Shown here one piece after another: positions 41,101 through 41,696 of a stretch of 64,000 nt of DNA. Each line of letters starts with the position of its first letter. Positions within the stretch are counted from its first letter, which is position 1. This DNA is from Adhaeretor mobilis (lineage in GTDB: Bacteria > Planctomycetota > Planctomycetia > Pirellulales > Lacipirellulaceae), in NCBI RefSeq assembly GCF_007741515.1, contig NZ_CP036263.1, positions 3,023,178 to 3,087,177 on the forward strand, in the 5' to 3' direction. A program made the translations under genes and the position numbers. The notes under the pieces were generated by a model. That model searched no databases, was not told the origin of the DNA, and saw only the letters and a program-made list of their open reading frames with translations.

Positions 41101-41290
41101 CTGATGCTCTACCGCTGAGCTACAGCCAACTTTGCAGTTGGCTGACGGGATTCGAACCCGCGACCGTCAGATCGATGTAGTTCCTTCGGCATTCGCCGCA
41201 AATGTCATTTCCTTAAAAAACGTGACGACAAGTATTGATGAAACGTTCTACGCGCTCTACCAAACTGAGCTACGGCCCCTTTCTATCAGG
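41101..41290 (-). ncRNA. Y-RNA-like (YrlA/YrlB-type) noncoding RNA module containing tRNA-half mimics
   Basis: minus-strand T-arm GCGGG-TTCGAAT-CCCGT + CAGCCAA, joined by a 7-nt cap to TTGGCTG-TA-GCTCAGCGGTAGAGC (acceptor-5-prime + D-arm); a second 5-prime-half mimic GGGGCCG-TA-GCTCAGTTTGGTAGAGC lies at 41245-41276; position between rsr and rtcB as in Salmonella rsr-yrlBA-rtcBA. Confidence 0.5.
41175..41212. repeat. conserved ~35-nt motif, copy A: ATGTAGT-N7-GCATTCG-N12-TTTCC (plus-strand notation)
   Basis: four copies at 41175-41212, 41391-41423, 41515-41547, 41598-41630. Confidence 0.6.
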
Positions 41291-41390
41291 TCATTATCCT
41301 CGCGAGCAAGATCTTGGCCACGCCAAGTCAAGCCGCCTGATAACAAGTGGAGCCGGTGGGATTCGAACCCACGACCTCGGGATCTAAACC

Positions 41391-41423
41391 ATGTAGTTCC
41401 ATCCGCATTCGTCACGTTTTTCC
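41391..41423. repeat. conserved motif, copy B
   Basis: ATGTAGTTCCATCCGCATTCGTCACGTTTTTCC. Confidence 0.6.
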
Positions 41424-41514
41424 TTCTATTATCAAAATCAACGACAAGGGGAAGCGAGACGTCCGGCAATCTGTATTTCAAGAAAACCAGGGAGGGATCG
41501 AACCTCCTAAACCA

Positions 41515-41547
41515 ATGTAGTCACGCCAGCATTCGTTGATATTTCCT
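41515..41547. repeat. conserved motif, copy C
   Basis: ATGTAGTCACGCCAGCATTCGTTGATATTTCC. Confidence 0.6.
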
Positions 41548-41597
41548 ACTTCGTGATTCAAACGGCCGACAAGGCTGAGACACGTGACATTGGGTAA

Positions 41598-41630
41598 ATG
41601 TAGTCCCGACAGCATTCGGCCAAAGTTTCT
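41598..41630. repeat. conserved motif, copy D
   Basis: ATGTAGTCCCGACAGCATTCGGCCAAAGTTTCT. Confidence 0.6.
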
Positions 41631-41696
41631 CTGTGTACTCTCCGTCAGGGGAAGGCGGGCCGACACAGAAATCCCACCTTCCCCAAGTATCCGACT

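Follow-up and report, generated by a model that had tools for sequence, protein, structure and literature searches.

The 651-nt spacer between rsr and rtcB of the planctomycete Adhaeretor mobilis carries four structured units on the minus strand (41070-41623; coordinates refer to the window, the 64-kb stretch of contig NZ_CP036263.1 that was analysed), and we put at roughly 0.87 the probability that these are four separate Y RNAs of the YrlA/YrlB kind within an RNA-repair operon controlled by RtcR and sigma54. Read from rsr towards rtcB they are a YrlB-like, hairpin-type RNA (Y4, 41560-41623), an RNA in which a T arm is followed directly by a second hairpin (Y3, 41434-41542), and two YrlA RNAs with a full tRNA-like domain (Y2, 41219-41415; Y1, 41070-41199). 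All four share the strand of rsr and are found 74-630 nt past its stop codon, within the 4 kb that Chen et al. (2014) used as their proximity criterion. The main features of such RNAs are already described in the literature, and what we report is a known family in a known type of operon; it is newly placed in a phylum (Planctomycetota) that the cited YrlA papers do not discuss, with two of the four RNAs falling outside the Rfam thresholds. So far the result is one of annotation: a planctomycete that can be cultured is shown to carry an rsr-Y RNA-rtcBA repair operon of textbook type.

Each unit begins with the sequence NNNCGA-AUGC-N7-(A)CUACAU and ends with CUUG-UCGNNN, and the two ends pair with each other. 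A preliminary description of this region, made from the DNA letters, had noted four copies of a conserved motif at 41175, 41391, 41515 and 41598, and the core of the motif is indeed found at exactly these positions; the GGAAA (plus strand TTTCC) that was said to complete it is present in three copies only, the copy at 41598 having AGAAA instead. Every one of the four modules is closed by a matching 3' strand (CUUGUCG plus its complement), which had been overlooked. Four matches to the core, CGAATGC-N7-ACTACAT, were found in the window, all of them on the minus strand, compared with 0.01 expected from shuffled sequence, and a search with a fixed N9 spacer gave no match in the window, the spacer being N7. 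In the folds each module is closed by its own terminal stem, so that, of the two arrangements considered earlier, several separate RNAs are favoured over one multi-module RNA. After each stem come a short U run and a spacer rich in A and G. The ACUAC sequence had been compared to the Ro60-binding helix of Y RNAs, a comparison that does not hold, since in the published model this element is a conserved YUAY that opens the variable loop and Rsr recognizes the motif GNCGAAN0-1G, here CGAAUG (PMC4201824). This motif lies in the end-paired stem of Y4 (GCCGAAUG), Y2 (GACGAAUG) and Y1 (GGCGAAUG).

The order of parts in Y1 and Y2 is that of YrlA, which Chen et al. (2014) described as RNAs with GNCGAAN0-1G near the 5' end followed by T-like, acceptor-like and D-like stem-loops (PMC4201824), and for which a crystal structure and the description as a circularly permuted tRNA, with an acceptor stem of variable length, have been published (bioRxiv 10.1101/312249). 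The permuted order, with the T arm and 3' acceptor strand ahead of the D arm, reads on the minus strand just as had been noted earlier; it is the defining published architecture of YrlA, and thus a feature already known. In Y1 the T arm GCGGG-UUCGAAU-CCCGU (41145-41161) is followed by the acceptor strands CAGCCAA (3') and UUGGCUG (5'), then U8-A9 and the D arm GCUCAGCGGUAGAGC (41106-41120). The cap between the acceptor strands, previously given as 7 nt, is 8 nt long (CUGCAAAG) and folds into two further base pairs and a GCAA tetraloop, which together with the 7-bp acceptor gives a closed hairpin of 9 bp (41123-41144). The single-sequence fold of Y1 has a free energy of -48.6 kcal/mol (z -2.95), and folds of single sequences recover the YrlA architecture. 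Y2 has the T arm GUGGG-UUCGAAU-CCCAC (41356-41372), the 3' acceptor strand CGGCUCC (41349-41355), the 5' acceptor strand GGGGCCG (41273-41279), U8-A9 and the D arm GCUCAGUUUGGUAGAGC (41254-41270). Its acceptor strands are 69 nt apart (41280-41348), a distance given before as 67 nt and made up of the discriminator A73 and a structured linker of 68 nt. Both RNAs show the T arm, acceptor stem-loop and D arm in this order with GGUUCGA, U8-A9 and GCUCA...GGUAGAGC, and in both the T-loop uridine (UUCGA; the target of TruB, pseudouridine 55) and the D-loop uridines (the targets of DusA, dihydrouridine) are present. The search with Rfam models that had been proposed as a check of the Y RNA identity was positive, Y2 scoring 74.7 bits and Y1 71.0 bits with the YrlA model (RF02553; gathering score 69).

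The other two RNAs are more divergent from the curated families. The preliminary description placed the motif, conserved in four copies, ahead of each T-arm unit. To the copy at 41515 belongs a third T arm that had gone unnoticed (GGAGG-UUCGAUC-CCUCC, 41491-41507, in Y3, which lacks a D arm), and the copy at 41598 is in Y4, which has no tRNA-like part at all, neither T arm nor D arm. Y3 scored 36.5 bits with the Rfam YrlA model (E 4e-6, 41435-41539), below the gathering score and outside RF02553, and 119 bits with our own covariance model R2. Y4 consists of a terminal stem (GGCCGA/UCGGCC), an AUGC internal loop, an inner stem and an apical hairpin (ACAUU-UACCC-AAUGU); it scored 21.6 bits with the YrlB model (RF02565; E 0.16, 41561-41627) against a gathering score of 97, and 78.7 bits with our covariance model R1. 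There is thus no significant similarity of Y4 to RF02565, a model that covers Salmonella-like sequences only. Its features are nevertheless those of YrlB of Salmonella Typhimurium, Yrn2 of Deinococcus radiodurans and YrlB of Mycobacterium smegmatis, namely a long hairpin with an Rsr-binding stem and a small pyrimidine-rich apical loop (here UACCC), a kind of Y RNA that has been described once in each studied species. Judged by these features, Y4 probably works like a YrlB-type hairpin Y RNA although it lies outside the narrow RF02565 family.

Comparison with 80 loci, collected from the genomes of species and from the nearest metagenomic relatives (loci are designated L001, L003 and so on) revealed that these modules are widely conserved. 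Homologues of the A. mobilis Rsr are planctomycetal, and in six Pirellulales loci with 75-92% identical Rsr all four modules, with their motif, are present in the same order. The covariance models, R1 built from Y4 and R2 from Y3, gave 84 and 239 matches, respectively, over 953 kb of related loci, all on the rsr strand directly downstream of rsr. Two to seven modules per locus are found in the 80 loci, which belong to Planctomycetes, Acidobacteria and Verrucomicrobia, usually in the order hairpin, T-arm-only RNA, full tRNA mimic and sometimes another tRNA mimic, and tandem arrays of these three classes are the rule 3' of rsr in these phyla; Rfam at its gathering score detects only about half of the modules in the relatives. 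The stems covary strongly, as the preliminary description had proposed to examine. In the Y4 class compensatory changes were seen in 13 of 16 stem pairs (50 unique homologues), and in the Y3 class in 11 of 29 pairs among the six Pirellulales sequences and in 15 of 21 pairs among 26 sequences from several phyla. For the T stem and acceptor stem together, 10 of 12 pairs covary with a score of 0.81; shuffles gave 0.23, with none of 500 reaching 0.81, and sliding the partners against each other gave 0.20 or less. The modules counted for the acceptor had, however, been chosen beforehand for pairing (at least 6 pairs out of 7), and the sequences share ancestry, which makes them less independent than the shuffle statistics suggest. 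In L081, the closest relative (Rsr 92% identical), the equivalent of Y1 (4654-4799 of that locus) has the T loop UGGAAAC in place of UUCGAAU, an altered D arm and an insertion of about 15 nt with the Y stem intact, and this fourth module seems to be either evolving freely or decaying.

Several observations weigh against the identification of all four units as Y RNAs, in addition to the dependence among sequences just mentioned. The motif of Y3 (AACGAAUG) has A for the first G of GNCGAAN0-1G, and both Y3 and Y4 lie under the curated Rfam thresholds. Sequence, family membership, synteny, conservation and covariation were observed directly, while transcription, processing, binding by Rsr and function in A. 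mobilis are carried over by homology, and even for Salmonella no function has been assigned to Rsr and Y RNAs in rtc operons (PMC7790460).

Two other readings of the region as a whole were considered. One is that the modules work in cis, within the operon mRNA, where as attenuators, stabilisers or processing sites they would control the ratio of rsr to rtcB expression, rather than in trans as RNAs bound to Rsr. Their position in the spacer of a single transcription unit, the stem and short U run at the end of every module and a conserved hairpin after the rsr stop codon would all suit such a role; however, membership in YrlA is established, the homologues in Salmonella and M. smegmatis are stable RNAs bound to Rsr (PMC4201824), a processing site would not need conserved nucleotides of tRNA tertiary interactions, and none of the modules is a canonical terminator (the one match of a terminator scan within the array joins the Y3 T arm to a nearby U run and was read as a false positive), so we regard this as very unlikely. 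Less credible still is that the region is a functionless, decaying remnant of tandem tRNA duplications, that is, a group of tRNA pseudogenes. The T-arm and D-arm sequences are tRNA-like, an array of 30 tRNA genes lies 4 kb away and a published model derives YrlA from dimeric tRNAs (bioRxiv 10.1101/312249), but the parts are in permuted order with a conserved Y stem in place of the anticodon arm, ARAGORN called neither a tRNA nor a transfer-messenger RNA (tmRNA) in 41046-41696, and the conservation of all four modules with compensatory changes across phyla already contradicts decay. The Rfam tRNA model gave a sub-threshold match of 22.5 bits at 41140-41277 that joins the D-arm half of Y2 with the T-arm half of Y1, and in three relatives such matches, which join halves of adjacent Y RNAs, exceed the gathering score (L001, 8230-8373; L055, 8223-8341; L066, 8181-8339). 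In these joined matches the D arm and 5' acceptor strand come from one Y RNA, the T arm and 3' acceptor strand from the next, and the strands of the Y stems between them make up a long "intron". They are best treated as an annotation trap, and would fit an origin of the modules in which tandem tRNA genes came to be read out of register by half a period.

For the Y RNAs themselves, a likely mechanism can be drawn by homology from Salmonella, M. smegmatis and Deinococcus. In Salmonella, RtcR activates rsr-yrlBA-rtcBA when tRNA fragments with 2',3'-cyclic phosphate ends build up (PMC7790460), and in A. mobilis RtcR would likewise be activated by damaged tRNA fragments, whereupon the sigma54 promoter would drive transcription of the whole operon as a single RNA, and cleavage would release the Y RNAs from the rsr-rtcB spacer. 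Each would then bind the outer surface of the Rsr ring via its own stem, and the tRNA-like or hairpin module may recruit or block a partner, for instance PNPase or some other protein that binds tRNA. Rsr could in this way be adapted to different substrates in RNA repair or decay, the three structural classes representing three kinds of adaptor. The earlier suggestion that the RNAs feed RtcB has gene neighbourhood as its sole basis, here as in the literature.

Close to rsr genes, Chen et al. (2014) found 355 YrlA RNAs, distributed over 254 bacteria and 22 phages (PMC4201824), and two of the studied systems are particularly close to that of A. mobilis. The layout is that of rsr-yrlBA-rtcBA in Salmonella Typhimurium (RF02553; PDB 6cu1), with a divergent rtcR, a sigma54 promoter, rsr, Y RNAs in the spacer, rtcB and rtcA. 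Salmonella YrlA shares with the A. mobilis RNAs a Y stem with GNCGAAN0-1G, a T arm, a closed acceptor and a D arm, and the acceptor hairpin of Y1 is closed as well. The two systems differ in the number of Y RNAs (four versus two), the host (a planctomycete here), the acceptor stem (7 bp, with 2 bp more in Y1, versus 6 bp in Salmonella), the 69-nt linker and alanine identity set of Y2, and an orphan open reading frame between rtcB and rtcA. The YrlA of M. smegmatis also has a 7-bp acceptor and in vivo undergoes cleavage by RNase P and addition of CCA, and M. smegmatis YrlB has a T arm only, as does Y3; both are processed from one precursor (PMC4201824). In contrast to A. mobilis, the M. smegmatis Y RNAs lie upstream of rsr and outside the control of RtcR, and no long linker has been reported for them.

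The acceptor stem of Y2 deserves separate consideration. The preliminary description had pointed out a G3:U70 pair in it, which is present, and together with G1-C72, G2-C71, G4-C69 and A73 this pair forms the alanine identity set, which also appears in the Rfam tmRNA consensus; the stem is exactly 7 bp long and flanked by unpaired nucleotides. Of the 92 full tRNA-like modules, 43 have a G:U pair at position 3:70 (counted by unique acceptor type, 19 of 60), compared with 1-9 of 92 at the other six positions, and A73 accompanies G3:U70 in 40 of these 43 modules versus 17 of the remaining 49. Modules of this alanine type, often one to a locus, are carried by 35 of 84 loci, and pairs 5-7 covary while G3:U70 stays, across three phyla. 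Of 39 alanine-type modules, 24 have a helix that ends at precisely 7 bp, versus 11 of 46 others (Fisher p 8e-4, without correction for phylogeny), the others mostly extending by one pair into a tetraloop. Linkers of the alanine-type modules range from 5 to 69 nt and are unconserved, that of 69 nt in Y2 being common only to the two closest relatives while the corresponding linker is 16-17 nt long in both L084 and L003 and has 44 nt in L001. An encoded A-CCA directly follows the 3' acceptor strand in some YrlA modules of Verrucomicrobia and Acidobacteria (L046, 8036; L055, 8191; L066, 8147-8506), in L066 in three successive modules.

One reading of these features is that Y2 and its equivalents are opened, with RNase P cutting 5' of G1, loss of the 69-nt linker, trimming of the 3' end to A73(C), completion of CCA and charging by AlaRS, while the stem still binds Rsr. 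The exact 7-bp stem with unpaired flanks, the G3:U70 and A73 of Y2 and their enrichment across the 92 modules, the covariation of pairs 5-7 around the persisting G3:U70, the end of the helix at 7 bp and the variable linkers, the encoded A-CCA of the three loci, and the sub-threshold permuted-tmRNA and tmRNA matches on Y2 all point this way, as does the precedent of M. smegmatis YrlA, which likewise has a 7-bp stem and in vivo is cleaved by RNase P and given CCA (PMC4201824). On the other hand the statistics ignore shared ancestry and the pattern may be inherited from tRNA-Ala, four Schlesneria loci (L011-L013 and L063) have G3:C70, Salmonella YrlA is not cleaved (PMC4201824), and a charged Y RNA has no known function, so we hold the opening of Y2 to be doubtful. 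A trifle more doubtful is the general form of the proposal, a widespread subclass of YrlA including Y2 that is marked by the alanine set on an exact 7-bp stem and an open, freely evolving linker and that would be opened by RNase P, receive CCA and be alanylated. The simplest alternative is that the alanine pattern was inherited from a tandem tRNA-Ala ancestor, which fits the published model of a dimeric-tRNA origin. Were the proposal true, an aminoacylated two-piece RNA bound to Rsr would present an end mimicking tRNA-Ala or tmRNA, and RNA repair by Ro60 and RtcB could be linked to AlaRS, EF-Tu or the ribosome. Aminoacylation of a Y RNA was raised as an idea for M. smegmatis in 2014, and we found no test of it; in the literature searched, whose partial coverage makes this no proof of novelty, no alanine identity, AlaRS or aminoacylation of YrlA was found. 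Three phage Rsr loci (Myxococcus phage Mx1, Mycobacterium phage Phabba and Streptomyces phage LukeCage) contained no YrlA within 3 kb at either threshold, and are therefore unusable for testing the alanine-type acceptor outside the clade.

The resemblance of Y2 to tmRNA raises the further alternative that it is the gene of a permuted two-piece tmRNA or of a split or permuted tRNA-Ala, to which we assign practically no likelihood. The two-piece tmRNAs of alpha-proteobacteria and cyanobacteria (RF04321) have the same succession of T arm, 3' acceptor strand, intervening segment and 5' acceptor strand, the Y2 acceptor with its G3:U70 fits their consensus GGGGNNG/CNNCUCC-A, and the region 41271-41406 scored 27 bits with the Rfam tmRNA_permuted model (E 0.002) and 18.7 bits with the tmRNA model. 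Both scores are far under the gathering score of 47 and leave Y2 outside these families, whereas full-length Y2 is above the YrlA gathering score; moreover, ARAGORN found no tmRNA or tag peptide, and Y2 lacks an anticodon arm, pseudoknots and an mRNA-like reading frame but has a canonical D arm and a predicted Ro60-binding Y stem as its body. Circularly permuted tRNA genes, known from Cyanidioschyzon merolae and a number of archaea, also place the 3' half first, and their acceptor loop is opened by RNase P or RNase Z (bioRxiv 10.1101/312249). Unlike the A. mobilis RNAs, in which the Y stem takes the place of the anticodon arm, they become real tRNAs with an anticodon arm via a circular intermediate.

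The genes around the four Y RNAs are those of an RNA-repair operon, in the order rsr, Y4, Y3, Y2, Y1, rtcB, orf237, rtcA. The Ro60 orthologue rsr (41697-43274, minus strand; Pfam TROVE and vWA_Ro60) encodes 525 amino acids from the start MANKTLF; a longer open reading frame of 537 codons has no support from homologues, which are 525 amino acids long and 68-92% identical (Planctomycetes). The RNA ligase gene rtcB (39543-41045, minus strand; Pfam RtcB, E 1e-104) follows directly 3' of Y1, and the RNA 3'-phosphate cyclase gene rtcA (37786-38886, minus strand; Pfam RTC and RTC_insert) is the final gene. The sigma54-dependent activator gene rtcR (43526-45109, plus strand; Pfam RtcR with a CARF-type N-terminal domain, and Sigma54_activat) is divergent from rsr. 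A pattern match to a sigma54-type promoter (TGGCAC-N5-CTGCA, 43337-43351, minus strand) lies about 60 nt 5' of the rsr start codon and, by analogy with the RtcR/sigma54 system, probably serves as the operon promoter. The divergent rtcR, this promoter sequence and the location of rsr, rtcB and rtcA on one strand are the hallmarks of RNA-repair operons, and the same order of genes recurs in L081 and L084. A strong intrinsic terminator (37378-37408, minus strand; 13-bp stem and U run) after rtcA is the 3' end of the operon and separates it from the tRNA genes beyond.

Between rtcB and rtcA, and overlapping both, lies orf237 (38852-39565, minus strand; 237 amino acids). It is missing from L081 and L084, in which rtcB and rtcA are adjacent, and it had no match in Pfam, NCBIfam, PADLOC or PDB sequences, its sole database match being its own Adhaeretor mobilis entry. 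A G+C-rich hairpin of 12 bp (41648-41684, minus strand; -24.8 kcal/mol) without a U tract is located 13 nt past the rsr stop codon and 5' of Y4. The six Pirellulales loci all keep it; compensatory changes are seen in L084 and L003, and L001 has about 150 nt inserted in the loop. The hairpin may stabilise the 3' end of the rsr message or serve as a site of processing.

The array of 30 tRNA genes (33038-37156, minus strand) lies directly 3' of the rtc operon on the same strand, past the terminator. The number of tRNA genes prompted us to consider a phage or plasmid origin, but there was no blastn match in the phage collection, plasmids gave only distant rsr matches, on those of rhizobia, and the stretch belongs to the A. 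mobilis chromosome. The tRNA-Ala genes of the array were also considered as donors of the Y2 halves; they have the same G3:U70/A73 acceptor but a different, non-canonical D arm and a different T stem, and a direct derivation was rejected. The non-canonical D arm is seen in the tRNA-Ala(TGC) gene of the array. Long tRNA arrays adjoining rtcB are known in cyanobacteria, where a tie to rsr or Y RNAs is not mentioned (PMC8421152). At least 20 tRNA genes occupy the same place in L081 (7789-10147) and none do so in L084, L001 and L003, and of about 62 loci scanned, about 14 have arrays of 5-24 tRNA genes beside rsr (for example L040, L048, L074, L053, L072 and L070; Planctomycetes, Phycisphaerae and Acidobacteria). 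In L014 (7982-8857; Phycisphaerae), seven tRNA genes stand between rsr and the downstream Y RNA modules, interleaved and on the same strand. The A. mobilis array also has some odd members, including a tRNA-His with the anticodon ATG (33038-33110), a tRNA-Gln of 91 nt (33543-33633), a tRNA-Ala(GGC) of 88 nt (33990-34077) and a tRNA-Ile(TAT) (36680-36752).

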